Below are positions 11,374 to 62,800 of a stretch of DNA of 64,000 bases, in pieces (position 1 is the stretch's first letter; each line of letters begins with the position of its first letter). Under the pieces are notes generated by a model. The model saw nothing but the letters and a program-made list of their open reading frames with translations. It did not search any database and had not been told where the DNA came from. The position numbers were made by a program, and so were the translations under genes. Source of the stretch: Escherichia coli (GTDB taxonomy: Bacteria > Pseudomonadota > Gammaproteobacteria > Enterobacterales > Enterobacteriaceae); assembly GCF_011045215.1 (NCBI RefSeq), contig NZ_CP049201.1, one strand, 5' to 3'.

Positions 11374-11925
11374 TTACAATTTTTTAATTATTCTGGCTGG
11401 ATTACCGCCCACGACAACGTTGTCCGGGACATCTTTTGTGACAACTGCACCTGAGGCTACCACGACGTTATCACCAATGGTCACACCAGGGTTAATGACC
11501 GCGCGTCCGCCAATCCAGACGTTATTACCGATGGTGACGGGTTTCCCCAGTTCAGCACCGCTATTACGTGCTACAGGGTCGATGGGATGTGTTGCCGTGT
11601 AGATATGAACGCCTGGTGCCAACATACAGTTATCACCGATGCGAATAGGGCAGACATCAAGCATCACACAATCGAAGTTGGCGAAAAAATTATTACCGAG
11701 AAAAATGTTATAGCCATAGTCACAGCGAAACGTTGGCTCAATATAAGCCTCTGTCACCTGACCAAATAAATCAGCGAGAATTTGCTGGCGTAATGTGTGC
11801 TCTTCCGCCAGGGAATGATTGTATCGGTGAATAAGCTGACGAGCGCGCAGGCGATCGCGAGATAACGTCTCATCTGCCGAGCGATACAACTCACCAGCAA
11901 TCATCTTTTCTTTTTCTGTGCTCAT
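11374..11925 (-). CDS. maa: maltose O-acetyltransferase (hexapeptide-repeat acyltransferase)
   Basis: 183-aa ORF with left-handed beta-helix hexapeptide repeats ([45 protein letters not shown]). Confidence 0.9.
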
Positions 11926-12096
11926 TACTGACCTCCGGTTGCTGAAAATGCGGCAACACAGTAAGACGAAAAGTCAGTGAAGAGAACGTTCCCATTACAT
12001 CTGTGTGATAAAGATCACATAGGGTATGTCTTCATGGCGAAAAAGTATAAAATTCTTAATAAACAGCCGGTTATAGCTCCGAAAGCGAATTATTTA

Positions 12097-12315
12097 TTAG
12101 CGAATAAATTTCCATACAGAGGAAGGGATCTTGTCGTACAGTTTATTCATGGTCAATTCGGCGAGGCGGTGATCTGCGGCTGAGTAAAATACCGCCAGTT
12201 CATTATCTGATAATTCGTATTTATTTTTCTCGATAACACGCTCCAGCGTGTCAATTGTCTGGCAACGACGTAAACGCATTAAATAATCGGTTTTCGTTAA
12301 AGGTTTTTCGGACAT
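12097..12315 (-). CDS. hha: haemolysin expression-modulating protein Hha
   Basis: 72-aa product [72 protein letters not shown]; track ORF 12097-12561 is a long upstream extension. Confidence 0.93.
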
Positions 12316-12340
12316 ACTTCTACCCATGGTTGTAATAATT

Positions 12341-12715
12341 CTAACAAGATAAACTCGCAGGATTCTCTTTCGTCGCATTGACAAAACAACGGAATAGTCG
12401 ATTACCTGACTTCCGCCATTTCTGAAGATCCTGCATATTAATACCATAACTGCTGAACAACATAAAGGTGTCATCCAGATATTCGTCGATCTGCTCAATG
12501 AGCTTATTGTCTTCATTATACTTAATTTTGTAATTAAGTGCGAAGGTCGCAATATGCTCAATCAGTTCATTCAACTGGAGGTTGATCGCCGAGGTTGGGT
12601 CGTTTACCCAGCCATGATTGCTTTCTTCAAGGTTTGCAAGGCAGTCATGATACAGGGTTTCACAGAGAAACTTAAGCTGTGCGATATCATGTCTTTTGGG
12701 TGAGTATTCATCCAT
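12341..12715 (-). CDS. tomB: Hha toxicity modulator TomB (YbaJ)
   Basis: 124-aa ORF immediately upstream of hha in the same orientation. Confidence 0.9.
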
Positions 12716-13220
12716 AACGCGTCCCCTTCTTAGCGGTTGAACTAACGGACACCTTTCGGGATGGAAAAAACTTACTGACCTGGACTTGCCCTCTCGTTTG
12801 TTAGCTTAACTATAAGCCACTCTTTGCAGGTTTTCATCGCATTATTACGAAAAATTACAATTAGGAAGGAAGCGGGACAGGACTCACTTTTTCATACTAG
12901 CACTAACCCGCAGCAGGTAAAAGCAGTTTGCTCGAACTATTCATAACATTTCAGGATTATCGCCAGATGAAATTGGTGACACTAATACCAGGATTGCTCT
13001 GAATATGACGTAATAACCGAGGAATGAATAAAGAATTACCGCAAATAATTAAGAATAGCCTCTAAATGATTATGGATTATTAAATCTATTAGCGCTACTT
13101 AATATAAATTAACTAACAATCAGTATTTTTTATGAATTTTATCCGTGGTTAATACTGGTTTTCGTATGAGATCCTGAGTTGGTGGTTCAATTACTCCTTA
13201 ATGTTCGTAGGTTATGCATA

Positions 13221-13242
13221 AAAAAGGCCGCTTACGCGGCCT
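13221..13242 (-). terminator. rho-independent terminator downstream of acrB
   Basis: Hairpin aaggccgcttacgcggcctt; on the minus strand it is followed by a T-run. Confidence 0.65.
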
Positions 13243-13260
13243 TAGTGATTACACGTTGTA

Positions 13261-16413
<3,153 letters not shown>

Positions 16414-44782: not shown

Positions 44783-46075
44783 ATGATGAACACGGAAGGT
44801 AATAACGGTAACAAACCTCTCGGTCTATGGAACGTCGTTTCCATCGGCATTGGGGCAATGGTGGGGGCGGGGATCTTCGCGCTGCTGGGGCAGGCTGCGT
44901 TGCTAATGGAAGCCTCGACATGGGTCGCCTTTGCTTTTGGCGGTATTGTGGCGATGTTTTCCGGTTATGCCTATGCGCGTCTGGGGGCGAGCTATCCCAG
45001 CAATGGCGGCATTATCGACTTCTTTCGTCGCGGATTAGGCAACGGCGTCTTTTCGCTGGCGCTCTCGTTACTGTACCTGTTGACGCTGGCGGTGAGCATC
45101 GCCATGGTCGCCCGTGCTTTTGGCGCTTATGCCGTGCAGTTTTTGCATGAAGGCAGCCAGGAGGAGCACCTTATTTTGCTCTACGCGTTGGGGATCATTG
45201 CGGTGATGACGCTTTTCAACTCCTTAAGCAACCATGCGGTAGGGCGGCTGGAAGTGATCCTCGTCGGCATTAAAATGATGATCCTGTTATTGCTGATTAT
45301 TGCCGGTGTCTGGTCGCTGCAACCGGCGCATATTTCCGTCTCTGCGCCCCCCAGCTCCGGTGCGTTCTTCTCCTGTATCGGGATAACCTTCCTTGCCTAT
45401 GCGGGCTTTGGCATGATGGCGAACGCGGCGGATAAAGTGAAAGATCCGCAGGTCATTATGCCACGGGCGTTTCTGGTGGCGATTGGCGTTACCACGTTGC
45501 TTTATATCTCGCTGGCGCTGGTTTTGCTTAGCGATGTATCGGCATTAGAGTTAGAAAAATATGCCGATACCGCCGTAGCGCAGGCAGCTTCTCCGCTGCT
45601 CGGGCATGTGGGTTATGTGATCGTCGTCATCGGCGCTTTACTGGCGACGGCTTCAGCCATCAACGCGAACCTGTTCGCCGTGTTTAACATCATGGACAAC
45701 ATGGGCAGCGAACGCGAACTGCCGAAGCTAATGAATAAATCCCTGTGGCGGCAGAGTACCTGGGGCAACATCATTGTCGTGGTGTTGATTATGCTGATGA
45801 CGGCGGCACTAAATTTAGGCTCACTCGCCAGCGTTGCCAGCGCCACCTTTTTGATTTGCTATCTGGCGGTGTTTGTGGTGGCGATCCGCCTGCGTCATGA
45901 TATTCACGCCTCGTTGCCGATTCTTATCGTAGGTACGTTGGTGATGTTGTTGGTGATCGTTGGCTTTATCTACAGCCTGTGGTCCCAGGGCAGCCGTGCG
46001 TTGATATGGATTATTGGTGCAATCTTACTCAGCCTTATTGTGGCAATGGTCATGAAGCGTAATAAAACCGTATAA
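44783..46075 (+). CDS. ybaT: APC-superfamily amino-acid transporter YbaT
   Basis: 430-aa polytopic membrane ORF 3 nt downstream of glsA (probable operon). Confidence 0.9.
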   Translation: MMNTEGNNGNKPLGLWNVVSIGIGAMVGAGIFALLGQAALLMEASTWVAFAFGGIVAMFSGYAYARLGASYPSNGGIIDFFRRGLGNGVFSLALSLLYLLTLAVSIAMVARAFGAYAVQFLHEGSQEEHLILLYALGIIAVMTLFNSLSNHAVGRLEVILVGIKMMILLLLIIAGVWSLQPAHISVSAPPSSGAFFSCIGITFLAYAGFGMMANAADKVKDPQVIMPRAFLVAIGVTTLLYISLALVLLSDVSALELEKYADTAVAQAASPLLGHVGYVIVVIGALLATASAINANLFAVFNIMDNMGSERELPKLMNKSLWRQSTWGNIIVVVLIMLMTAALNLGSLASVASATFLICYLAVFVVAIRLRHDIHASLPILIVGTLVMLLVIVGFIYSLWSQGSRALIWIIGAILLSLIVAMVMKRNKTV

Positions 46076-46412
46076 CACCTCTCTGTGCGCAGTACTTTCT
46101 GTACTGCGCCTTTGTCTTTAATTCAAATTACCTTTCTTATTCCTTTAATAAATAAGTCACAAAAAAATGATATATACGCGATAAATCTGTGATGCTAATC
46201 ACTTATTACCGTGGATTATTCTTAATGTGTATGATGGTAATCTAAAAGTCGTAGTGTATTCTAAATAAATAACGTATAAGCTTTTTAGCTGCATTTCTTT
46301 GCCCATATCAATGATCGACAAAAGAGATGCACAAGTTATTACCCTTCTTAATAAAATGAGACTGGTTATAAAAACCAGTTAAAATAATGACCTGGAAGGA
46401 AGTGACTTACCT

Positions 46413-47768
46413 ATGGCGCGATTCCAGTTTAAAAACCGTAAAAATAATGGACTTATTTTTTTAATAAGTTTTATGGTGATGGGAGAAGCTGCAATTGCTG
46501 CACCGCTGCCACAATGGGCGAATGCCCCAGCGGTAACGCCAGTTGCCCGATTATCTTTACAGGAAAGTATATTACGCGCCTTTGCGCGAAATCCCGACGT
46601 CACTCAACAGGCGGCGCAGATAGGCATTGGCGAAGCGCAAATTGATGAAGCCAAAAGTGCCTGGTATCCGCACGTTGGATTAACCGGCAACGCGGGGCCG
46701 TCCCGACAAACGGACTCCAGCGGCAGGCTTGATAACAACGTTTCGTATGGCATAACCCTGACACAACTGGTGTATGACTTTGGTAAAACTAACAACGATA
46801 TCAATCTGCAAACTGCCGCCCGTGACAGCTACCGCTTTAAATTGATGGCTACCTTAACCGATGTTGCAGAGAAAACGGCGACTGCCTATATGGAAGTCAG
46901 TCGTTATCAGGCTTTGTGCGATGCGGCTCAACGCAATATTCACTCGCTGGAAAACGTCTACAACATGGCGGCATTGCGCGCTAACGCTGGCCTGAACTCA
47001 TCGTCGGATGAATTACAGGCCCAGACGCGTATTGCCGGAATGCGCTCAACGCTGGAGCAATATCAGGCGCAGATGGCGAGCGCCAAAGCGCAACTGGCGG
47101 TGCTCACTGGCGTACAGCCAGAGGCGATAGCCGCGCCACCTGCTGAATTAGCCGAGCAGCCGGTATCGCTGAAGAATATTGATTACCAGTCCATCCCGCT
47201 GGTGCTGGCGGCAGAAAACTTACGCCAGTCAGCACAGTACGGCGTGGAAAAAACGAAAGCGCAATACTGGCCAACGCTCAGTATTCAGGGGGGTAAAACG
47301 CGCTACCAGACCAGCGACCGCTCGTATTGGGATGATCAGCTACAACTGAACGTTAACGCGCCGCTGTATCAAGGCGGCGCGGTTTCTGCCCAGGTGCAAC
47401 AGGCCGAAGGGCAACAAAAAATCTCTGCCTCGCAGGTCGAACAGGCAAAACTGGATGTGCTGCAACGAGCGTCTGTGGCATATGCGAACTGGACCGGCGC
47501 ACGGGGTCGCGAAGAAGCCGGTTTAGCGCAATCCGAAAGTGCGCACAAAACGCGAGATGTGTACCAAAATGAATATAAATTGGGTAAACGCAGTCTGAAT
47601 GATCTATTAACCGTCGAGCAAGATGTCTTTCAGGCGCAATCGGCTGAAATAAATGCCAATTATGATGGCTGGGTCGCCGCCGTAAATTATGCCGCTGCGG
47701 TGAATAACCTTATTCCTTTAGCGGGAATTAAACAGGGCTTATACAACGACTTACCCGACTTGAAATAA
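46413..47768 (+). CDS. TolC-family outer-membrane channel, probable type I secretion outer membrane protein
   Basis: 451-aa ORF with N-terminal signal-like hydrophobic segment (LIFLISFMVMGEAAIAAP); TolC-like composition and helical repeat pattern (LSLQESILRAFARNPDV, ...YDFGKT..., coiled-coil Q/A-rich segments); sits immediately upstream of the giant repeat protein gene; preceded by an AT-rich region. Confidence 0.7.
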   Translation: MARFQFKNRKNNGLIFLISFMVMGEAAIAAPLPQWANAPAVTPVARLSLQESILRAFARNPDVTQQAAQIGIGEAQIDEAKSAWYPHVGLTGNAGPSRQTDSSGRLDNNVSYGITLTQLVYDFGKTNNDINLQTAARDSYRFKLMATLTDVAEKTATAYMEVSRYQALCDAAQRNIHSLENVYNMAALRANAGLNSSSDELQAQTRIAGMRSTLEQYQAQMASAKAQLAVLTGVQPEAIAAPPAELAEQPVSLKNIDYQSIPLVLAAENLRQSAQYGVEKTKAQYWPTLSIQGGKTRYQTSDRSYWDDQLQLNVNAPLYQGGAVSAQVQQAEGQQKISASQVEQAKLDVLQRASVAYANWTGARGREEAGLAQSESAHKTRDVYQNEYKLGKRSLNDLLTVEQDVFQAQSAEINANYDGWVAAVNYAAAVNNLIPLAGIKQGLYNDLPDLK

Positions 47769-47870: not shown

Positions 47871-50800
47871 ATGAGCCTGATTATTGATGTTATTTCGCGT
47901 AAAACATCCGTCAAACAAACGCTGATTAATCCTGGCGACGTCACGGTTGTTATTTATGAGCCTTCCGTGGTGCAGGTTCATGCTCAGGCCTCTGCCGTTG
48001 CGCGTTACGTCCGTGAAGGAAATGACCTGCTGATCTATTTGCAGGACGGCACGGTGATCCGCTGCAACGGTTATTTCCTGCAAGCGGCGAATACAGCTGA
48101 ACAATCGGAACTGGTGTTTGCCGATGGTCAACAGCTAACCCATGTCACCTTCGCCGATACTGCTGCGGGTGGATTAGCCCCCGTAGAACTGACTGCCCAG
48201 ACCACTGCGATTGAAAGCATTGCGCCATTTCTTGATACCGTTGCTCAGACCAGCGCCTTCCCGTGGGGTTGGCTGGCGGGGGCGGCGGTAGGTGGCGGTG
48301 CGCTTGGTGCACTGCTGGCAAGCGGTGGCGATGGCGACTCGAAAACAGAAGTGATTAATAACCCTACGCCACCTGCTGAGCCTGGCAACGCCACACCATC
48401 ATTTTTAGTTACCGATAATCAGGGCGATCAGCGCGGCATTCTCGCCACCAATGACATCACCGATGACACCACGCCAACCTTTAGCGGCAGCGGGCAGGCG
48501 GGGGCGACTATTCAGATTAAAGACAGTAACGGCAATACTATTGCCAGTACTCAGGTAGACAACAACGGTCACTGGAGTGTCTCGTTACCCACGCAAAGTG
48601 CAGGTGAACATACCTGGTCAGTGGTGCAAATTGTCGGCAGTACCATCACTGACGCCGGTTCGATAACGTTAACCATCGACAATAGTCAGGCCAGCGTGCA
48701 GGTTGCCACCACCGCAGGCGATAACATTATTAACGCCAGCGAACAGGCCGCCGGGTTTACGCTTTCTGGCACCAGTAGCCATCTGGCACAGGGAACAGAA
48801 CTCACCGTCACACTTAACGGCAAAACCTACACCACCAGCGTAGGCGCTAACGGTGCCTGGAGCGTGCAGGTGCCGACCGCCGATGCACAGGCGTTAGGCG
48901 AAGGGAATCAGGCGGTACTGGTCAGTGGGAAAGACACCACAGGCAATACGGTCACCGGCGCGCAGCTGCTAACGGTCGATACCCAACCGCCAACGCTTGC
49001 CATCAACACCATCGCTCAGGACAACATCATCAGTGCTGCGGAACATAACGTCGCGCTGGTACTGAGCGGCACGTCGAATGCAGAAGCGGGGCAAACCGTA
49101 ACACTGACCGTCAACGGGAAAAGCCATACAGCAACCGTCGGTAGCGACGGAACCTGGCAAGTGACGCTGCCTGCCACGGAAGTCCAGGCACTGGCGGAGG
49201 GTAATTACGCTGTCAATGCCAGTGTCAGCGATCGGGCAGGGAACACCACCAGCCACAGCGCGAATCTCACGGTAGACACCTCAGCACCCGTGGTCAGTGT
49301 TAATACCGTGGCGGGCGACGATATTCTTAATAATGCCGAGCAGGCCGTCGCGCAGATCATCTCCGGACAAGTTAGCGGTGCTTCTCCTGGCGATACGGTA
49401 ACGGTGAAATTGGGCACTCATGTCCTGACGGGCATCGTGCTGGCAGATGGCAGCTGGAATGTGGCGTTGGACCCGGCGGTAACCCGCACGCTGGATCGCG
49501 GAGCCAATACGATTTTCGTCACCGTGACAGATGCTGCAGGAAATACTGGCGCGGCGTCTCGAGCAATCACGCTGGTCGGTGTTTCTCCGTTGATCACCAT
49601 TAACACCGTCTCCGGCGATGACATTATCAGTGGCGCAGAAAAAGGTGCGCCACTGACCCTTACCGGTAGCACTCAACAGGCTGAGACAGGACAAACCGTC
49701 ACAGTAACCCTGGCTGGACAGAGTTTTACCACTACCGTGCAGGCCGATGGCTCCTGGAGTCTGACGGTACCTGCCGCCGCGATGGGAAATCTGCCTGACG
49801 GCGCGGTGGCGATTACCGCTTCTGTGACGGATCTCAGCGGCAATACCGGCAACACCTCCCGCACCATTACCGTCGACAGCCAGGCCCCGGCCTTAAGCAT
49901 TGATCCACTGACCGCTGATAACATCATTAACGCCGCCGAAAGCGGGCAGGATCTGCCCATCACCGGCACCACCGACGCTCAGCCGGGGCAGACGGTGACC
50001 GTTACGTTAAATGGGCAGACGTATCAGGGCGTCGTGCAGCCAGACGGCACCTGGAGCGTGACTGTGCCCGCCGCCAACGTGGGCGCACTGGCTGACGGCA
50101 ACGCTACGGTCACCGCCAACGTGAACGATGTCGCCGGTAATCCGAGCAGCGTCTCACGCGTGGCGCTGGTCGATGCCACGCCGCCGGTGGTGACCATTAA
50201 TCCGGTGGCGACCGATAACGTCATTAACACGCCGGAACATACCCAGGCGCAAATCATCAGCGGTACGGTTACTGGCGCTCAGGCGGGCGATATCGTCACC
50301 GTGACGCTGAATAATGTGAATTACACCACGGTGGTGGATGGTTCCGGCAACTGGAGCCTGGGCGTTCCGGCCTCGGTGGTCAGTGGGCTGGCGGACGGCA
50401 GTTATCCTGTCAGCGTCTCGGTAACCGACAAAGCCGGAAACACGGGCAGCCAGTCACTGACTGTCACGGTCAATACCGCAGCGCCCCTTATCGGCATTAA
50501 CAGCATTGCGGGCGATGATGTGATTAATGCCAGCGAAAAAGGGGCCGATCTCCAGATTACCGGCACCAGCGATCAGCCAGTGGGTACCGCCATCACCGTG
50601 ACGCTCAACGGGCAAAACTATGCGGCGACGACCGATGCCTCCGGCAACTGGAGCGTCAACGTTCCGGCATCGGCGGTAACCGCACTGGGCCAGGCCAACT
50701 ACACGGTAACGGCGGCGGTAACCAGCGATATCGGCAACAGCACCACCGCCAGCCATAATGTGCTGGTCGACAGCGCGCTGCCCGGCGTGACCATTAACCC

Positions 50801-53800
50801 GGTGGCAACCGATGATATTATTAACGCCGCCGAAGCGGGCGTGGCGCAAACCATCAGCGGGCAGGTGACTGGAACCGCCGTTGGCGACGCGGTAACCGTG
50901 ACGCTGGGCGGTAATACCTACACCACCACCGTGCAGGCCGGCTTAAGCTGGAGCGTGGACGTTCCGGCGGACGCTATTCAGGCGCTGGGTAATGGCGATT
51001 TAACGGTTAATGCCTCGGTCACCAATCAAAACGGCAACACCGGCAGCGGCACGCGGGATATCACCATCGACGCCAATCTGCCCGGCCTGCGGGTCGATAC
51101 GGTGGCGGGCGATGATGTGGTCAATATCATCGAGCACGGGCAGGCGCTGGTGATTACCGGCAGCAGTTCGGGGCTGGCAGAAGGCACGCCGCTTACCGTT
51201 ACGATTAATAATGTGGAATACACCACTGCGGTGCAGGCCGATGGTAGCTGGAGCGTGGGCGTCACGGCGGCGCAGGTTAGCGCCTGGCCTGCGGGGACGG
51301 TTAATATTGCCGTGTCCGGGGAAAGTAGCGCCGGAAATCCGATAAGCATTACGCATCCGGTAACGGTGGATCTCACTCCGGCGGCTATCACCATCAACAC
51401 TATCGCCACGGACGATGTGATTAACGCTGCAGAAAAAGGGGCTAATTTAACTCTTTCCGGCACCACCACTAACGTAGAAGCAGGGCAAACCGTCACTGTC
51501 ACCTTTGGCGGTAAAAATTACACCGCCAGCGTGGCGGGCGATGGTAGCTGGACTGCCACCGTTCCCGCCGCCGATCTGGCGGCATTACCGGAAGGCAGCG
51601 CCTCCGCTCAGGCCAGCGTCAGCAATATCAACGGCAATAGCGCCTCGGCGGTGCATAACTACAGCGTCGACAGCAGCGCGCCAACCATCATTATCAATAC
51701 CGTCGCCAGCGACAATATCGTCAACGCCAGCGAAGCCGATGCGGGTGTGACGGTGAGCGGCAGCACCACCGCTGAAGCGGGGCAGATTGTTACGGTAACG
51801 CTCAATAGCCCGACCGTGCAGACGTATCAGGCAACGGTACAGGCGGACGGCAGCTGGAGCATCAATATTCCGGCGGCAGATCTTGAGGCATTGACCGATG
51901 GCAGCCACACCCTGACCGCGACGGTCAATGACAAAGCGGGCAACCCGGCGAGCACCACGCATAATCTGGCGGTGGATCTCACCGTCCCGGTACTCACCAT
52001 CAATACCATTGCGGGCGATGACATTATTAACGCCGCCGAGCACGGACAGGCGCTGGTGATTTCTGGTTCCAGCACAGGCGGAGAGGCGGGAGATGTCGTC
52101 ACCGTCACGCTAAACAGTAAAACCTACACCACGACGCTGGATGCCTCCGGCAACTGGAGCGTCGGTGTTCCGGCGGCGGATGTCACCGCGCTGGGTAGCG
52201 GCCCGCAAACCATCACTGCCAGCATTACCGATGCGGCAGGTAATAGCGACAGCGAAACGCACACGGTCACCGTTAACCTTACCGCGCCGACCATTGGCAT
52301 TAACACCATCGCCACCGATGACGTGATTAATGCCACCGAAAAAGGCGCAGATCTGCAAATCTCCGGCACCAGTAATCAGCCAGCGGGCACCACGATTACG
52401 CTGACGTTTAACGGGCAAAATTACACCGCCACGACGGACGCCGCAGGTAACTGGAGCACCACGGTGCCAGCCTCTGCCGTCGGTGCGCTGGGCGAAGCCA
52501 GCTACACGGTGACGGCGAACGTCACCGACAGCGCAGGCAACAGCAATTCCGCCAGCCATAACGTGCAGGTCAATACCGCGCAGCCTGGCGTCACCATTAA
52601 TCCGGTTGCGACTGACGATATTATTAACGCCGCCGAATCGGGCAATGCGCAAACCATCAGCGGTCAGGTAACGGGCGCGGCGGCGGGCGATACCGTCACC
52701 GTGACGCTTGGCGGGAAAACCTACACGGCTACCGTGCAGGGGAATCTAAGCTGGAGCGTGGATGTTCCGGCTGCGGATATTCAGGCCATCGGTAATGGCG
52801 ACCTGACTGTTAACGCCTCAGTGACCAACGGCGTTGGCAATACCGGCAGCGGTTCGCGAGATATTACTATCGACGCCAACCTGCCTGGCCTGCGCGTCGA
52901 TACCGTGGCGGGCGATGATGTGGTTAACAGCATCGAACACGGTCAGGCACTGGTGATAACTGGTAGCAGCAGCGGGCTGGCGGTGGGCGCGGCGCTGACG
53001 GTGGTGATCAATAACGTCACCTATGGCGCGACAGTATTAGCCGATGGCACATGGAGCGTTGGTGTTCCGGCGGTAGACGTGAGTAACTGGCCTGCGGGTA
53101 CGGTGAATATCACGGTAAGTGGCACTAACACAGCCGGAACAACATCCACCATTACCCATCCGGTCACCGTCGATCTGGCGGCGGTGGTGATTTCCATTAA
53201 CACCATCTCCGGCGATGATGTGATTAACGCCGCCGAAAAAGGGGCAGATTTAACCCTTTCCGGCAGCACCTCCGGCGTAGAGCCAGGGCAAACGGTCACC
53301 GTCACCTTTGGCGGCAAAACCTACACCGCCACCGTAGCAGGCGATGGTAGCTGGACAACCACCGTACCTGCCGCCGATCTCAGCGTGTTACGCGACGGCG
53401 ACGCCACGGTACAGGCCAGCGTCAGCACTATTAACGGCAACACGGCTTCGGCAACCCACGCTTACAGCGTTGATGCCACTGCCCCGACGCTTGCCATTAA
53501 TACCATCGCCACCGACGATATTCTGAACGCCGCCGAGGCGGGCAATCCGCTAACCATCAGCGGCAGTAGCACCGCTGAAGCGGGGCAGACGGTAACTGTC
53601 ACGCTTAATGGCGTGACTTACACCGGCACCGTCCTGGCGGACGGGAGCTGGAGCGTCAGCGTGCCGACGGCGGATCTCAGCAATCTGACCGCCAGCCAGT
53701 ACACCGTCAGCGCCTCGGTAAACGATAAAGCGGGTAACCCGGCATCCACCACTCACGGGCTGGCGGTGGATCTCACCGTGCCGGTGCTGACCATCAACAC

Positions 53801-56800
53801 CGTCTCCGGCGATGACATTATTAACGCCGCCGAACACGGACAGGCGCTGGTGATCTCCGGCTCCAGTACTGGCGGCGAAGCGGGCGATGTCATCACCGTC
53901 ACGTTAAACAGTAAAACCTACACCACCACGCTGGATGCCTCCGGTAACTGGAGCGTCGGCGTTCCGGCGGCAGATGTCACCGCACTTGGCAGCGGCCCGC
54001 AAACCATCACGGCCACGATTACGGATATCGCGGGTAATAGCGATGATGCTAGCCGCACGGTCACCGTAAATCTCACCGCGCCAACCATTGGCATCAACAC
54101 CATCGCCACCGATGACGTGATTAACGCCACGGAAAAAGGCGCGGATCTGCAAATTACCGGCACCAGTAATCAGCCCGCGGGCACCACCATTACGGTGACG
54201 TTGAACGGGCAAAATTACACCGCTACTACCGATAGCAACGGCAACTGGAGCGCCACGGTGCCAGCGTCAGCGGTTAGCACGCTGGGTGAAGCTAACTACA
54301 CGGTAACCGCGAACGTCACCGACAGCGCAGGTAACAGCAATTCCGCCAGTCATAACGTGCTGGTCAACAGCGCCTTGCCTGCCGTCACCATTAACGCGGT
54401 GGCGACCGACGATATTATTAACGCTGCCGAAGCGGGCAATGCGCAAACCATCAGCGGGCAGGTGACGGGTGCCGCGGCGGGCGACACGGTTACCGTTACG
54501 CTGGGCGGCAACACCTACACCGCTACCGTACAGGCTAATTTAAGCTGGAGCGTTAGCGTGCCAGCGGCGGATATTCAGGCGCTGGGCAACGGCGACCTGA
54601 CAATTAATGCCTCGGTCACTAACGTCGTCGGCAACACCGGCAGCGGCTCGCGCGATATCACGATCGACGCCAATCTGCCTGGCTTACGGGTCGATACCGT
54701 GGCGGGCGATGATGTGATTAACAGCATTGAGCACAATCAGGCGCTGGTGATCACCGGTAGCAGCACCGGGCTGACGGCGGGAACGGCGTTAACGGTCGAG
54801 ATTAACAACGTTACTTATGGCGCGACGGTGTTAGCCGACGGCACATGGAACCTCGGTGTTCCGGCGGCAGACGTCAGCAACTGGCCTGCGGGTACGGTGG
54901 ATATCACGGTAAGCGGCACCAACAGCGCCGGAACAACCTCCACCATTACCCATCCGGTTACCGTCGATCTGTCGGCAGTCGCCATCACCATTAACACTCT
55001 CTCTGGTGATGATGTGATCAACGCCGTCGAAAAAGGCGAAACGCTGGTCGTAAGCGGCAGCACCAGCGGTGTCGAAGCCGGGCAAACGGTGACCGTCACC
55101 TTTGGCGGCAAAAATTACACCACCACTGTGGAAGCTAACGGTAGCTGGACGGTGAACGTACCGCCTGCCGATCTCGCTGCGCTACCGGACGGTGCGGGCA
55201 ACGTGCAGGCGAGTGTCAGCAACATCAACGGCAATAACGCCCAGGCGGATCGTACGTACAGCGTCGATGCCACCGCGCCACTTGTGACCATCAACACCAT
55301 CGCCAGCGACGATATCCTTAACGTGAGCGAAGCTGGCGCGGGGATCACCATCAGCGGCACTACCACGGCGCAGGCCGGGCAGACGCTGACCGTCACGCTC
55401 AATAATAACACGTACCAGACCACGGTTCAGGCGGATGGCACCTGGAGCGTGAATGTTCCGGCAGCGGATTTAAGCGGATTAACCGCCAGCAGTTACACCG
55501 TGACCGCCACGGTGAGCGACAAAGCGGGTAACCCGGCAAGCGCCGACCACGCGCTGGCGGTGGACGTTACCGCACCGGATCTCACCATTAATACCGTCGC
55601 GGGCGATGACATTATTAATGCCATCGAACACGGTCAGGCGCTGGTCGTCAGCGGAACCAGCACGGGCGCGGCGGCGGGTGATGTGGTCACGGTTAACCTG
55701 AACGGTAAAAACTACACCACCACGCTGGATGCCTCCGGTAACTGGAGCGTGGGCATTCCTGCGGTGGATGTGACGGCGCTGGCAACCGGCAACCAGACCA
55801 TTACCGCCAGCCTGAGCGATCGCGCGGGCAACAGCGACAGCACGACTCACAATGTGACCGTTGATCTCAGCGGCCCGACGCTGACCATCAACACCGTCTC
55901 CGGCGATGACATTATTAATAATGCGGAGAAAACCCAGGACTTGATCATCAGCGGCGGCTCCAGCGGTCTGGCGGCAGGCACTACGGTCACCGTGATGTTG
56001 AACGGCCTGGCGTACAGCGCTACTACCGACGGCTCCGGCAACTGGAGCGTTACCGTGCCTGCTTCTTCGGTTGGCGCGCTCGGCGAGGCGGTGTATCAGA
56101 TTAGCGCCAGCGCCACCGACAGCGCGGGCAACAGTGGCAGCACCACCCATACGGTGAATGTCGAATCGCTCCTGCCTGGGGTAATCATTAATACCGTGGC
56201 GGGCGATGACATTATCAACGCCGCTGAAATCGCTGTGGCGCAGACCATCAGCGGTCAGGTCACGGGGACGGCGGTTGCGGGTAATACGGTGATTGTCACC
56301 ATTGGCGGCAATCAATATAACGCCACCGTGCAGTCAGATTTAAGCTGGAGCGTCAGCGTACCTGCGAACGTTTTGCAGGCGCTGGGCAACGGTGAACTGA
56401 CCATCAGCGCCTCGGTGACTAATTCCGCAAATAATACCGGCACCACAACGCACGACATCGTGATAGATGCCAACCTGCCAGGTCTGCGCGTCGATACCGT
56501 GGCAGGCGATGATGTGATTAACAGCATCGAGCACACTCAGGCGTTGGTGATCACCGGTAGCAGTAGCGGACTGGCGGCGGGCGCGGCGTTGACGGTGGTT
56601 ATCAATAGCGTCACCTACGGCGCAACGGTTTTAGCGGATGGTAGCTGGAGCGTTGGTGTTCCGGCGGCAGATGTCACAAACTGGCCTGCGGGGACGGTCA
56701 ATATTGCCGTCTCTGGCACCAACACCGCCGGAACGACAACCAGTATTACCCATCCGGTGACCGTCGATCTCGCAGCCGTGGCGATCACCATCAACACCCT

Positions 56801-59800
56801 TTCCACTGACGATGTGATTAACGCCGCCGAAAAAGGCAGCGATTTGCAGCTCTCCGGCACCACCTCCGATGTGGAAGCGGGGCAAACCATCACCGTTATC
56901 TTCGGCGGCAAAAGCTACACCACCACGGTTGCCGCGGATAATACCTGGGGGCTGACGATCCCTGCCGCCGATGTTGCAACCTTGCCAGACGGCGCAGCAA
57001 ACGTCCAGGCCAGCGTCAGCAATGTCGCAGGGAACAGCGCCCAGGCAACGCATGCTTACAGCGTTGATGCCACTGCGCCCTCCGTTACCATCAACACCAT
57101 CGCCACGGACGATATTCTTAACGCCGCCGAAGCGGGATCGGCGCTGACCATCAGCGGCACCAGCACGGCGGAAGCCGGGCAGACGGTGACCGTAACGCTA
57201 AACGGCGTTAATTACAGCGGCAATGTGCAGGCAGACGGGAGCTGGAGCGTCAGCGTCCCGACCGGCGATTTAGCTAACCTCACTGCCAGCCCCTATACGG
57301 TGAGCGCAGCGGTCAGCGACAAAGCCGGAAATCTGGCTTCGGCGACGCATAACCTGACGGTGGACCTTGCCGCTCCGGTCGTCACCATTAACACGGTGGC
57401 GGGCGATGACATCATCAACGCCACGGAACACGGACAGGCGCAGATTATCAGCGGCTCGGCAACGGGCGCGACGACGGGTAACACGGTTTCCGTGACGATT
57501 GGCACGACCACCTACGCCACTGTGCTGGACGCCAACGGCAACTGGAGCATCGGCGTACCTGCCAGCGTGATTTCCGCACTGGCGCAGGGTGATGTAACCA
57601 TTACTGCCACGGTTACCGACTCCGCAGGCAACAGTGGCACGGCTTCGCACATTGTCAGCGTGGCGCTCGGCGCGCCGATACTCAGCATTAACACCATTGC
57701 CGTCGACGACATCCTCAACGCCACGGAGAAAGGTGCAGATCTGGCGATTACCGGCACCAGCAACCAGCCCGCGGGTACGCAGATTACCATTACGCTCAAC
57801 GGGCAAAATTACACCACCACTGCCGATGCATCCGGGAACTGGAGCGTAACCGTTCCGGCGTCACGGGTCAGCGCCCTCGGTGAAGCCACTTATACGGTGA
57901 CTGCCGCCGCCACTGACACCGATGGCAACAGCGGTTCCGCCAGCCATAATGTGCAGGTCAATACCGCGCTGCCGGGCGTCACCATTAACGTGGTGGCGAG
58001 CGACGATATTATTAACGCCGCCGAAGCGGGCGCGGGCCAGACCATCAGTGGGCAGGTGACGGGTGCTGCGGCAGGCGATACCGTTACCATAACGCTCGGC
58101 GGAGCGACTTACACCGCTACGGTGCAGGCGAATTTAAGCTGGAGCGTCGATGTTCCGGCCTCCGCGCTACAGGCGTTGGGCAACGGTGAGCTGACCATTT
58201 CGGCCTCGGTAACGAACAGCGTGGGCAATACAGGTAACGGCACGCGCGAAATCACCATCGACGCGAATCTCCCTGGTCTGCGGGTCGACACCGTGGCGGG
58301 CGATGACGTGGTCAACATTATCGAGCACAATCAGGCGCTGGTGATTACCGGCAGCAGCTCCGATCTGGCAGCGGGCAGCAACGTCACGCTGACCATAAAC
58401 GGGCAAACGTATGTTGCGGCGGTGCTGGCGGATGGCTCATGGAGCGTCGGCGTTCCGGCGGCAGATGTCAGCGCCTGGCCTGCGGGGAAGGTCACAATTA
58501 CGGCGAGCGGCAACACCACCGCCGGAAACCCGGTGAGCGTTACGCATCCGGTGACGGTCGATCTCACTGCGGTGGCGGTCAGCATCAACGCCATTACTGC
58601 CGATGACGTGATTAACGCTGCCGAAAAAGGCGCGGCGTTAACGCTCTCTGGCAGCACTACTGGTGTGGAGGCCGGACAAACGGTCACCGTCACCTTTGGC
58701 GGCAAAACTTACAGCGCCACGGTGGCTGCGAATGGTTCCTGGAGCACCTCGGTTCCGGCGGCAGATATGGCGGCCCTGCGTGATGGCGATGCCAGCGCAC
58801 AGGCCAGCGTCAGCAATGTTAACGGCAACAGCGCCACCACTACCCACGCATACAGCGTCGATGCCAGCGCGCCAACGGTGACCATTAACACCATTGCGGG
58901 CGACGACATTCTTAACGCCGCCGAAGCCGGAGCGGCGCTAACCATCACCGGCAGCAGCACGGCGGAAGTGGGGCAGACGGTGACCGTCACGCTCAATGGC
59001 GCAAACTATACCGGCACTGTACAGACGGACGGCAGCTGGAGCGTCAGTGTGCCGCCAGCCGACTTAAGCGCTCTGACCGCCAGCAACTACACCGTTAGCG
59101 CGGCGGTGAGCGACAAAGCCGGAAACCCGGCCTCGGTTAACCACAACCTGACGGTGGATACTTCCGTTCCGGTCGTCACCATCAACACGGTGGCAGGCGA
59201 TGATGTGATCAACGCGACGGAACACGCCCAGGCGCAGATCATCAGCGGCTCCGCCACGGGAGCGGTAACCGGTAGCACCGTGACGGTGACTATCGGCACA
59301 AATACCTTTACCACGGTGCTGGATGCCAGCGGCAACTGGAGCGTCGGCGTCCCGGCAAGCGTCGTCTCGGCACTGGCGAACGGCACGGTGACCATTAACG
59401 CCAGCGTCACTGATGCCGGAGGAAACAGCGGCAGCACCACCCATCAGGTGACGGTCAATACCGGGCTGCCGACCATTACCTTTAACGCTATCAGCGGCGA
59501 TAACGTCCTGAACGCCGATGAAAAAGGCCAGCCGTTGACCATCAGCGGTAGCAGTACGGGGCTGGCGACGGGCGCGCAGGTTACCGTCTCGCTCAACGGT
59601 CACAACTACAGTGCTACCACCGACGCAGCAGGCAACTGGACCTTAACCGTGCCGGTGAGCGATCTGGCGGCTCTAGGCCAGGCCAACTATACCGTCAGCG
59701 CCAGCGCCACCAGTGCGGCGGGCAACACCGCCAGCAGCCAGGCGAATTTACTGGTCGACAGCGGCCTGCCGGGCGTCACCATCAACACCGTAGCGGGCGA

Positions 59801-62800
59801 CGATATTATCAACGCCGCCGAAGCGGGGGCCGATCAAACCATCAGCGGGGTGGTGACTCGCGCCGCCGCAGGCGATACGGTCACCGTGACGCTGGGCGGC
59901 AACACTTACACAGCGCAGGTTCAGGCCGATTTAAGCTGGAGCGTCACCGTTCCGGCAGCCGATTTCCAGGCGCTGGGCAATGGTGATTTGACCATTACCG
60001 CCTCGGTCACCAACGCGAATGGCAACACTGGCAGCGGCACGCGGGATATCACCATTGACGCCAACCTGCCTGGGCTGCGGGTGGATACCGTGGCGGGCGA
60101 TGATATCGTCAACAGTATCGAGCACGGGCAGGCGCTGGTGATCACCGGCGGCAGTAGCGGCCTGAATGCAGGTGCTGTGCTGACGGTTACCATCAACAGT
60201 GTGGCGTATTCCGCCACGGTACAGGCGGACGGGAGCTGGAGCGTCGGCATTTCGGCGGCAAGCGTCAGCGCCTGGCCTGCGGGGCCGTTAACCGTTGATG
60301 TGGCAGGACAGAGCAGCGCCGGAAATCCGGTCAGCGTCAGCCATCCGTTCACCGTCGATTTAACTTCGGTGGCTATCAGCATCAACACCGTTGCCAGCGA
60401 CGACGTAATTAACGCCGCCGAGAAAGGCACCGACCTGACCCTTTCCGGCAGCACCAGCGGGATTGAAAGTGGGCAAACCGTTACCGTCACCTTTGGCGGT
60501 AAAACCTACACCGCAAGCGTCGCCGCCAATGGAAGCTGGAGCGTAACGGTTCCGGCGGCGGATCTGGCAGCTCTGCCAGACGGCGCGGCGAACGTGCAGG
60601 CCAGCGTCAGCAGCGCGAGCGGCAATAGCGCCTCAGCGACTCATGCGTACAGCGTTGACGCCAGCGCGCCGACGCTCACCATTAACACCATCGCCAGCGA
60701 TGACATCCTTAACGCGGCAGAGGCGGGAAATCCGCTGACCATCAGCGGCACCAGCACCGCCGAAACCGGGCAGACGGTGACCGTCACCCTTAACGGCGCA
60801 ACCTACAGCGGTAATGTGCAGGCAGATGGTAGCTGGAGCGTCAGCGTTCCCACTTCAGCCCTGGGCGCGCTCACCGCAAGCAATTATACCGTCAGCGCCA
60901 CCGTCAACGACAAAGCGGGTAACCCCGGCAGCGCCAGCCATAATCTGGTGGTAGACACCACCGCGCCGGTTCTTACCATAAATACCGTGGCGGGCGATGA
61001 CATCATCAACGATGCCGAACATGCGCAGGCGCTGGTGATCTCCGGCACCAGTAGCGGCGGGGAAGCGGGCGATGTGGTGAGCGTTGTGCTCAACGGCAAA
61101 ACCTACACCACCACCCTGGATGCCTCCGGCAACTGGAGCGTCGGCGTTCCGGCGGCGGATGTTACGGCACTCGGTAGCGGTGCGCAGACCATCACCGCCA
61201 GCGTCAGCGATCGGGCAGGCAACAGCGACGACGCCAGCCGCACCGTCACCGTTAGCCTCAGCGCGCCAGTGATTAGCATCAACACCATCGCGGGCGATGA
61301 TGTGATCAACGCGACGGAAAAAGGATCCGATCTGGCGCTTTCCGGCACCAGCGATCAGCCTGCGGGTACGGCGATCACCGTCACGCTGAACGGACAAAAC
61401 TACAGCGCCACTACCGACGCCTCCGGCAACTGGAGCGTTACTGTGCCCGCCTCGGCGGTCAGTGCGCTGGGCGAAGCGACCTACAGCGTCACGGCGAGCG
61501 TCACCAATGCCCAGGGCAACAGCAGCACCGCCAGCCATAACGTGCAGATCAATACCGCGCTGCCGGGCGTCACCCTTAATCCGGTGGCGACGGACGATAT
61601 TATCAATGCCGCCGAAGCGGGCAGCGCACAAACCATCAGCGGCCAGGTAACCGGGGCGGCGGCGGGCAGTACCGTCACCGTTGAACTGGGCGGTAAAACT
61701 TACACCGCCATCGTCCAGGCTGATTTAAGCTGGAACGTGAGCGTACCAGCCGCCGACTGGCAGGCGCTGGGTAACGGTGAGTTAACCGTTAACGCCTCGG
61801 TCACCAACGCCGTTGGCAACACCGGCAGCGGCACGCGCGATATCACCATCGATGCCAGTCTGCCTGGCCTGCGGGTGGATACCGTCGCGGGTGATGATGT
61901 GGTCAATATCATCGAACACAGTCAGGCGCAGGTGATCACCGGCAGCAGCTCTGGCTTTGCGGCGGGCACGGCGCTGACGGTGGTGGTAAATAACCAAACT
62001 TACGCCGCCACGGTGCTGGCGAACGGCAGCTGGAGCGTCGGCGTTCCGGCGGCGGATGTCAGCAACTGGCCTGTGGGAACGCTGAATATTAGCGTTAGCG
62101 GCGCAAACAGTGCCGGAACGCAAACCAGCATTACCCATCCGCTGACTGTTGATCTCACGACCGTCGCCGTCAGCATGAACAGCATCACCAGCGATGATGT
62201 GATTAACGCCGCCGAAAAAGGCGCGGCGCTAACGCTCTCCGGCAGCACGTCTGGCGTCGAAGCGGGGCAAACCGTCACCGTCACCTTTGGCGGCAAAACC
62301 TACACCTCCACGGTGGCGGCTAACGGTAGCTGGAGCACCACCGTTCCGGTTGCGGATATGGCGGCGCTGCGTGACGGCGATGCCAGCGCCCAGGTGCGGG
62401 TGACTAACGTCAACGGCAACAGCGCCACGGCAACGCACGAATACAGCGTCGATAGCGCCGCGCCAACGGTCACCATCAACACCATTGCCAGCGATAACAT
62501 CATCAACGCCAGCGAAGCGGCGGCGGGCGTAACGGTGTCCGGCACCAGCACGGCGGAAACCGGGCAGACGCTCACCGTCACGCTTAACGGCACTAACTAC
62601 CAGACCACGGTGCAGGCAGACGGCAGCTGGAGTTTAACGCTGCCCGCCAGCGACTTAACCGCACTGGCTAATAACGGCTACACCCTGACCGCCACGGTCA
62701 GCGATCTGGCGGGTAACCCTGGCAGCGCCAGCAAAGGCGTGACCGTCGATACCACTGCGCCGGTGATCAGTTTTAACACCGTGGCGGGCGATGATGTGAT

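Follow-up and report, generated by a model that had tools for sequence, protein, structure and literature searches.

The 545 bp that separate tomB from acrB in Escherichia coli very probably form a composite, non-coding control region, in which the terminator of acrB, AT-rich upstream DNA, a CpxR-type block, a sigma-70 promoter, and an 87-nt leader lie one after another. This reading builds on features taken directly from the sequence or from published maps: gene boundaries, base composition, the terminator, the promoter with its start site, conservation, and the lack of an ORF or a known RNA family. Here, we describe the spacer (positions 12716-13260) within a 64,000-nt stretch of E. coli DNA, referred to as “the window”. 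In the arrangement that we propose, transcription of acrB would stop at the intrinsic terminator at 13243-13218. Beyond it, ~380 bp of AT-rich DNA, reportedly bound by H-NS, would carry three accessory sites, namely a distal AT block, a degenerate palindrome of the RcsAB type, and a PdhR-like box. A 21-bp block that is nearly invariant and has a CpxR-type repeat near −49 would then act from its position abutting an ATGAAA-17-TATAGT promoter, and transcription would start at 12802, running through a leader with an ordinary Shine-Dalgarno sequence into tomB-hha.

The spacer belongs to the core genome and lies in a very well studied locus. Of 5426 complete E. coli genomes, 5423 contain a match of 95-100% identity to an 801-bp query that includes it, and the 581 bp from 12690 to 13270 are 100% identical to E. 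coli K-12 MG1655 (NC_000913.3 coordinate = window position + 467993). The original prediction described about 500 bp of AT-rich sequence lacking a convincing ORF between tomB and acrB, and this description holds: GC content is 0.370 for 12716-13220, and the longest ORF is 40 aa. The end coordinate given in that prediction, 13220, coincides with the start of the acrB terminator. GC content is 0.378 for the whole spacer and falls to 0.289 in its core (13000-13200), against a window mean of 0.543. Windows of 505 bp that are equally AT-rich make up 0.56% of the total and occur in two places only, the tomB-acrB spacer and 45884-46624. Because intergenic DNA is AT-rich anyway, we also compared the spacer with annotated spacers, namely the 32 that are at least 30 bp long in the matching 47 kb of MG1655. 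By this measure, it is among the most AT-rich (0.378 vs a length-weighted mean of 0.45). The most unusual property of the spacer is its length; 545 bp, compared with a median of 139 bp, makes it the longest in the set. The features of the locus are collected in Table 1.

Table 1. Features of the maa-acrB interval, in window coordinates
Feature	Position	Strand	Description
maa	11374-11925	-	
hha	12097-12315	-	ORF identical to the MG1655 gene
tomB	12341-12715	-	ORF identical to the MG1655 gene; ATG at 12715
tomB 5′ UTR	12716-12802	-	87 nt; stem-loop 12745-12730; Shine-Dalgarno AAGGGGA 12728-12722
Sigma-70 promoter of tomB-hha	12809-12837	-	-35 ATGAAA 12837-12832, 17-bp spacer, -10 TATAGT 12814-12809; from promoter scan
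21-bp block	12843-12863	-	TAATTGTAATTTTTCGTAATA; adjoins the -35; candidate CpxR site; at least 90% identity at every position in 24 species from ~20 genera
PdhR-box-like sequence	12971-12987	+	AATTGGTGACACTAATA; 12/14 to AATTGGTnnnACCAATT
Degenerate palindrome	12989-13002	-	TCAGAGCAATCCTG; 9/14 to the RcsAB box TAAGAATATTCCTA
Distal AT-rich block	13040-13139	-	78% AT; cTTATTGt, TTTATTT, AATAAG, and a -10-like TATAAT in other genera; moderately conserved
Escherichia-specific spacer	13140-13217	-	C/G 1.58; alignment gap in most other genera, short partial stretch in two
acrB intrinsic terminator	13218-13243	-	8-bp GC-rich hairpin 13243-13224, T-run 13223-13218; from terminator scan
acrB	13261-16410	-	

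Promoter, leader, and the invariant 21-bp block

The core promoter is the best-documented part of the spacer. ATGAAA-17-TATAGT has 9 of 12 hexamer matches and scores 8.8 bits in a position-weight scan, and in 23 of 24 species the corresponding element scores 6 bits or higher. It is listed as the constitutive sigma-70 (RpoD) promoter of tomB-hha by Shimada et al. 2014, who also flag the spacer for H-NS (PMC3946193). Kim et al. 2012 placed the tomB start site 87 nt 5′ of the ATG, equivalent to position 12802, with a printed upstream sequence that ends ...ATGAAAACCTGCAAAGAGTGGCTTATAGTTAAGCTA; the orthologous promoter of K. pneumoniae has a mapped start with a 97-nt UTR, and the maps contain no further start between tomB and acrA in E. 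coli or within the ybaJ-acrB spacer of K. pneumoniae (PMC3415461 supplement). The published start, A12802, falls 7 nt past the -10 hexamer TATAGT. A ChIP-seq peak for RNA polymerase with sigma-S, at old coordinates 479920-480115 (window 12703-12898), covers the tomB promoter (PMC4447067).

The spacer was originally predicted to be the regulatory region or 5′ UTR of the tomB-hha operon. The regulatory half of that description stands, since a promoter, regulatory sites, and a UTR are all present, but only 87 nt are transcribed from the mapped promoter; the 400+ bp further upstream consist of promoter-upstream DNA and the acrB terminator zone.

The leader itself is unremarkable. Its Shine-Dalgarno sequence ends 6 nt 5′ of the tomB ATG, and its predicted fold is no more stable than those of shuffled sequences (z = −0.15). 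The consensus fold (RNAalifold) contains only a 4-bp UCCC/GGGG pairing that involves the Shine-Dalgarno region, formed by near-invariant columns without covariation; because the columns are near-invariant, this pairing is neither supported nor refuted. The 5-bp hairpin at 12745-12730 is paired in 88% of cells, and one of its pairs changes from UA to GC in five sequences, which lends modest support to a predicted small stabilizing stem and to nothing more. With neither excess stability nor a covarying multi-helix structure, the tomB leader does not resemble a thermometer or a riboswitch.

Immediately upstream of the -35, the 21-bp block contains a GTAAT-N5-GTAAT direct repeat (12858-12844) centered at approximately −49. 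The consensus site for CpxR is reportedly a GTAAA-N5-GTAAA direct repeat located upstream of the -35, as described by De Wulf et al. in 2002. The tomB repeat has two mismatches to this consensus; matches of that quality number 58 in the window vs 37 expected, so the match alone is not distinctive. In RegulonDB, both tomB and hha are entered as targets of CpxR, and the CpxR iModulon includes tomB; tomB is missing from the direct targets in the CpxR ChIP-exo of the same study (PMC7657598). As judged from its sequence, the repeat fits the RegulonDB listing, and we infer that CpxR acts through it.

Two further observations concern this segment. In E. coli GF4, a natural IS1A insertion with a target duplication at 12840-12847 lies exactly between the CpxR-type block and the -35; this insertion should uncouple the tomB promoter from the upstream sites. 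On the + strand, a divergent promoter-like element at 12833-12861 (-35 TTCATC, 17 bp, -10 TACAAT) reaches a score of 6 bits or more in 20 of 24 species. This element and the tomB promoter have the -35 region in common; the element also overlaps the CpxR-type repeat, and the map of Kim et al. contains no start site for it (PMC3415461 supplement).

Termination signals and the AT-rich upstream DNA

At the other end of the spacer, the acrB terminator has the makeup expected of an intrinsic terminator, with six GC pairs in the stem, a 4-nt loop, and TTTTTT. The hairpin and T-run are conserved in 24 of 24 aligned Enterobacteriaceae. Published data on Rho also bear on this interval. Adams et al. reported a “Rho termination region” at MG1655 481133(-), equivalent to window 13140, as well as a Term-seq 3′ end at 480636 (-), equivalent to window 12643, which is 72 nt into tomB and is flagged as lying within a Rho termination region. 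In the 800-nt windows of that study, without vs with bicyclomycin, the read count on the acrB side went from 99 to 100, and the read count downstream of 13140, i.e., over the rest of the spacer and tomB-hha, went from 281 to 589. Read-through from acrB cannot supply this rise, so inhibition of Rho approximately doubles the level of tomB-hha RNA. Premature termination early in tomB could account for the effect, as could dampening by H-NS and Rho, or the two together. We rejected the idea that the Rho region at 481133 is a back-up terminator for acrB, since acrB reads are flat and the effect is on tomB-hha RNA. Together, a start at 12802 and a 3′ end at 12643 would give a 5′ fragment of ~160 nt.

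The DNA between the terminator and the 21-bp block has the composition of an H-NS-bound region, with a GC content of 0.37 for the spacer and 0.29 at 13000-13200, against 0.54 for the window. The high-affinity H-NS motif TCGATAAATT has no occurrence in the spacer at up to one mismatch. This AT-rich upstream DNA probably serves as a platform for H-NS, and possibly for Hha, that would allow feedback on the operon.

Within the same stretch, the PdhR-like box is the only match with no more than two mismatches in the 64 kb; the expected number is 0.25, and one or more such matches turn up in 19% of shuffles. The box, ~170-185 bp upstream of the start site, is unconserved beyond E. coli. The tomB-hha operon has been stated to be a direct PdhR target (PMC3265435). 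A later PdhR gSELEX peak that was assigned to tomB falls, after conversion of the old coordinates, inside acrB and not at the PdhR-like box (PMC7660256).

Mobile elements have entered the spacer more than once. In E. coli ESBLEC_MG32, an insertion of ISKpn26, an IS5-family element, sits inside the PdhR-like box (12982-12985, a 4-bp overlap), and a contiguous copy of the region is absent from ~34 of the 5423 genomes. IS elements may therefore target the spacer recurrently. When random DARS1 transposon insertions were competed for 700 generations, one of the clones that survived had DARS1 in the tomB-acrB spacer, for which the authors had no explanation (PMC5010248).

Conserved blocks in the upstream half

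A TomB-based scan of one genome per species yielded 80 Enterobacteriaceae loci. In 76 of these, acrB lies directly upstream of tomB, giving, with the window, 77 spacers of 435-559 bp. The long spacer is therefore ancestral and has been maintained. Conservation in an alignment of 24 species is high at the terminator, across the 21-bp block and both promoter hexamers, and over much of the leader, and the rest diverges. Four blocks in the upstream part nevertheless keep a fixed order and spacing: cTTATTGt/TTTATTT; AATAAG...TATAAT; the palindrome TAAGAATATTCCT; and the TAAnnnAATGAnnnnTAAGG block. The distance from the -10-like element to the palindrome is 72-79 bp, and that from the palindrome to the TAAnnnAATGAnnnnTAAGG block is 65-70 bp. 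These distal blocks may act as accessory sites of regulation, with partial decay in Escherichia. At the TATAAT column, the E. coli hexamer is AATAAT (13081-13076), and the distal promoter-like score, which amounts to 6 bits or more in 12 of 24 species, is only 2.3-4.9 bits in E. coli.

Pseudescherichia vulneris and two relatives have lost ~85 bp between the palindrome and the promoter, such that the palindrome is located at approximately −135 rather than −220; all of the blocks are kept. We discarded a seemingly covarying inverted repeat, CTTAT...ATAAG, which flanks the distal -35 region in Enterobacter: the covariation comes from one pair of species only, its right arm forms a palindrome on its own, and the pairing is not kept in other genera. 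An in vitro gSELEX peak for the sigma-S holoenzyme lies near the acrB end of the spacer, at old coordinate 480454 or approximately window 13237 (PMC5493296). This peak is ~400 bp from the mapped tomB promoter, and it may reflect binding to the distal AT-rich block.

The RcsAB box is said to have the consensus TAAGAATATTCCTA, also written TaAGaatatTCctA, following Wehland and Bernhard in 2000. The exact RcsAB-type 14-mer occurs in three papers, of which two concern RcsB or Rcs. The palindrome is close to the RcsAB consensus in most genera, with 0-2 mismatches in 53 of 77 loci, compared with an average of 4.3 for shuffled spacers, and in most loci its center is ~205-237 bp upstream of the start site. 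In E. coli, the copy has five mismatches, and the best match anywhere in the spacer has four, no better than the shuffle mean of 4.4; by this comparison, the E. coli spacer lacks a close match to the RcsAB box. Going by the aligned sequences, the palindrome is decayed in Escherichia and appears vestigial in the window. A literature search found no link of Rcs to tomB-hha, the matches being to “RCSB PDB”.

A tentative proposal, which we consider improbable as a whole, is that the upstream half is a conserved and undescribed regulatory module for tomB-hha in the Enterobacteriaceae, comprising the distal AT-rich promoter-like block, the RcsAB-type palindrome at approximately −220, and the TAAnnnAATGAnnnnTAAGG block, which would place Hha under the control of both the Rcs and the Cpx envelope-stress systems. 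Such a module would perhaps act by countering H-NS silencing. If the proposal were true, the decay of the module in Escherichia would mean that K-12 poorly represents how hha is regulated in Salmonella, Klebsiella, and Enterobacter. The conserved distal module of other genera, including the RcsAB-like palindrome, is also the only part of the spacer that has not already been described.

There are other ways to account for the length of the spacer. It is possible, although on balance unlikely, that the extra length is mainly a passive, AT-rich platform for H-NS nucleation or an insulator, whose distal part has no sites for specific factors; it would silence and feedback-regulate tomB-hha and separate the operon from acrAB. 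The H-NS flag of Shimada et al. and the 78% AT content of 13040-13139 argue for such a role, as do the IS1 and IS5-family elements inserted in the spacer, which favor such DNA. The doubling of downstream RNA in bicyclomycin, with acrB flat, is likewise what would be expected of a unit dampened by H-NS and Rho. However, bulk AT-richness leaves blocks of preserved order and spacing unexplained, including the 14-bp palindrome, and the high-affinity H-NS motif is absent. A passive platform is, moreover, compatible with the composite control region rather than exclusive of it. A second suggestion, which we regard as improbable, is that the whole spacer is transcribed from a distal promoter with its -10-like element near 13081-13076, giving a long 5′ UTR of ~270-350 nt, in which case the blocks between the distal promoter and tomB would act as RNA or as roadblocks. 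The fixed alignment column of the TATAAT-like hexamer, its score in half of the aligned species, its constant distance to the palindrome, and the sigma-S SELEX peak near 13237 are all in keeping with a distal promoter. Yet the start-site maps of both E. coli and K. pneumoniae give the proximal start alone, the distal element of E. coli is far weaker than the proximal one (2.3-4.9 vs 8.8 bits), no Term-seq 3′ ends are listed within the spacer, and the sequence between the blocks is unconserved.

The presence of conserved blocks beyond the core promoter could also point to an unannotated gene, on either strand, that specifies a small protein or a small RNA, a reading to which we give very little chance. 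On the + strand, a frame encoding “...LLRKITI...” is open in 70 ORFs over the 77 spacers, and the promoter-like element TTCATC-17-TACAAT is widespread. We nonetheless rejected this ORF family, because the shared peptide merely translates the invariant promoter and CpxR-type block, and starts, ends, and lengths vary by genus; the E. coli version is the 40-aa fragment. That fragment, which has a TTG start, is the longest ORF on either strand, and shuffled sequences have a mean of 55 aa, with 85% of shuffles equaling or exceeding it. No small ORF is conserved across the 77 spacers. The curated RefSeq annotation of MG1655 has no feature between tomB and acrB, and the tomB start is the sole start site reported in the spacer. 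An Rfam covariance scan of 11800-13600, with E values up to 10, gave no match below E = 1; the best matches (E of at least 1.3) are far under the gathering scores and overlap the acrB terminator, and there is no significant RNA structure. The unusual length and AT-richness, together with the IS insertions in some strains, might alternatively be taken as signs that a gene or mobile element once occupied the spacer and has left only a decayed trace, which is exceedingly unlikely. Against this, a length of 435-559 bp and an unchanged block order are kept in 77 loci from many genera; repeats in the spacer are short and at chance level, with no repeat families and no terminal inverted repeats, and the sole ORF family is an artifact of the promoter block. 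A composite control region remains our preferred reading of the spacer.

Wider significance and comparison with known systems

Hha is an established co-regulator with H-NS; this is prior knowledge and is not something that the spacer sequence shows. The original prediction suggested that this role may bear on silencing of the adhesin island in the window, a link that is speculation. The island follows ybaT and holds a gene for a TolC-like outer membrane efflux protein (OEP; 46413-47768), at a place where MG1655 has cueR next to ybaT. A BapA-like ORF with Ig repeats runs from 47871 to 63998 and past the end of the window, encoding more than 5300 aa with BapA_N, Big_13, Big_6, and Big_3_3 domains. 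The GC content of this ORF, 0.58-0.63, is far above that of the E. coli core and opposite to what classical H-NS targets show, a composition that argues against the body of the adhesin gene being such a target. Near the island, only 45884-46624 is AT-rich; this stretch covers the intergenic DNA between ybaT and the OEP gene as well as the first ~200 bp of that gene, and it would be the likely site of any contact of H-NS and Hha with the island.

The control region matters because of the proteins encoded downstream of it. Hha tunes the silencing that H-NS exerts on genes acquired horizontally and is itself counteracted by TomB; hence, switching of the operon feeds into virulence, biofilm, and persistence phenotypes. 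The modestly useful product of our analysis is a cross-genus footprint with exact positions for candidate sites. The footprint places the likely CpxR site in the 21-bp block, limits the leader to 87 nt, and draws attention, for other genera of enteric bacteria, to the conserved RcsAB-like palindrome and the distal block.

For E. coli, the tomB-hha promoter, its start site, and its main regulators are already on record, and the locus is an ordinary one. Indeed, when set beside the known tomB-hha (ybaJ-hha) promoter of E. coli K-12, which is documented by start-site maps, RpoD gSELEX, and RegulonDB, the window has the same sequence, -35, -10, and start at the same locus, and the regulators reported for that promoter, CpxR, PdhR, and H-NS, are likewise those considered here. 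Compared with CpxR-activated promoters, the putative site shares the pentamer direct repeat, the 5-bp spacing, and a position near −49, and it is nearly invariant across genera; it differs in that its pentamers end in T, whereas those of the CpxR consensus end in A. The resemblance to the RcsAB box is closest in Salmonella, Citrobacter, Enterobacter, Klebsiella, Raoultella, Kosakonia, Kluyvera, and others, where the palindrome has 0-2 mismatches and a fixed position, but the site, ~190-230 bp upstream of the start site, is far from the usual activating positions of an RcsAB box. Lastly, the ymoB-ymoA operon of Yersinia is orthologous to tomB-hha, with a TomB-like gene followed by an Hha-family gene and a promoter upstream of the first gene. 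YmoB can reportedly substitute for TomB in E. coli (PMC5155140). Gene order and promoter position are alike in the two operons, a likeness that concerns the operon layout only.
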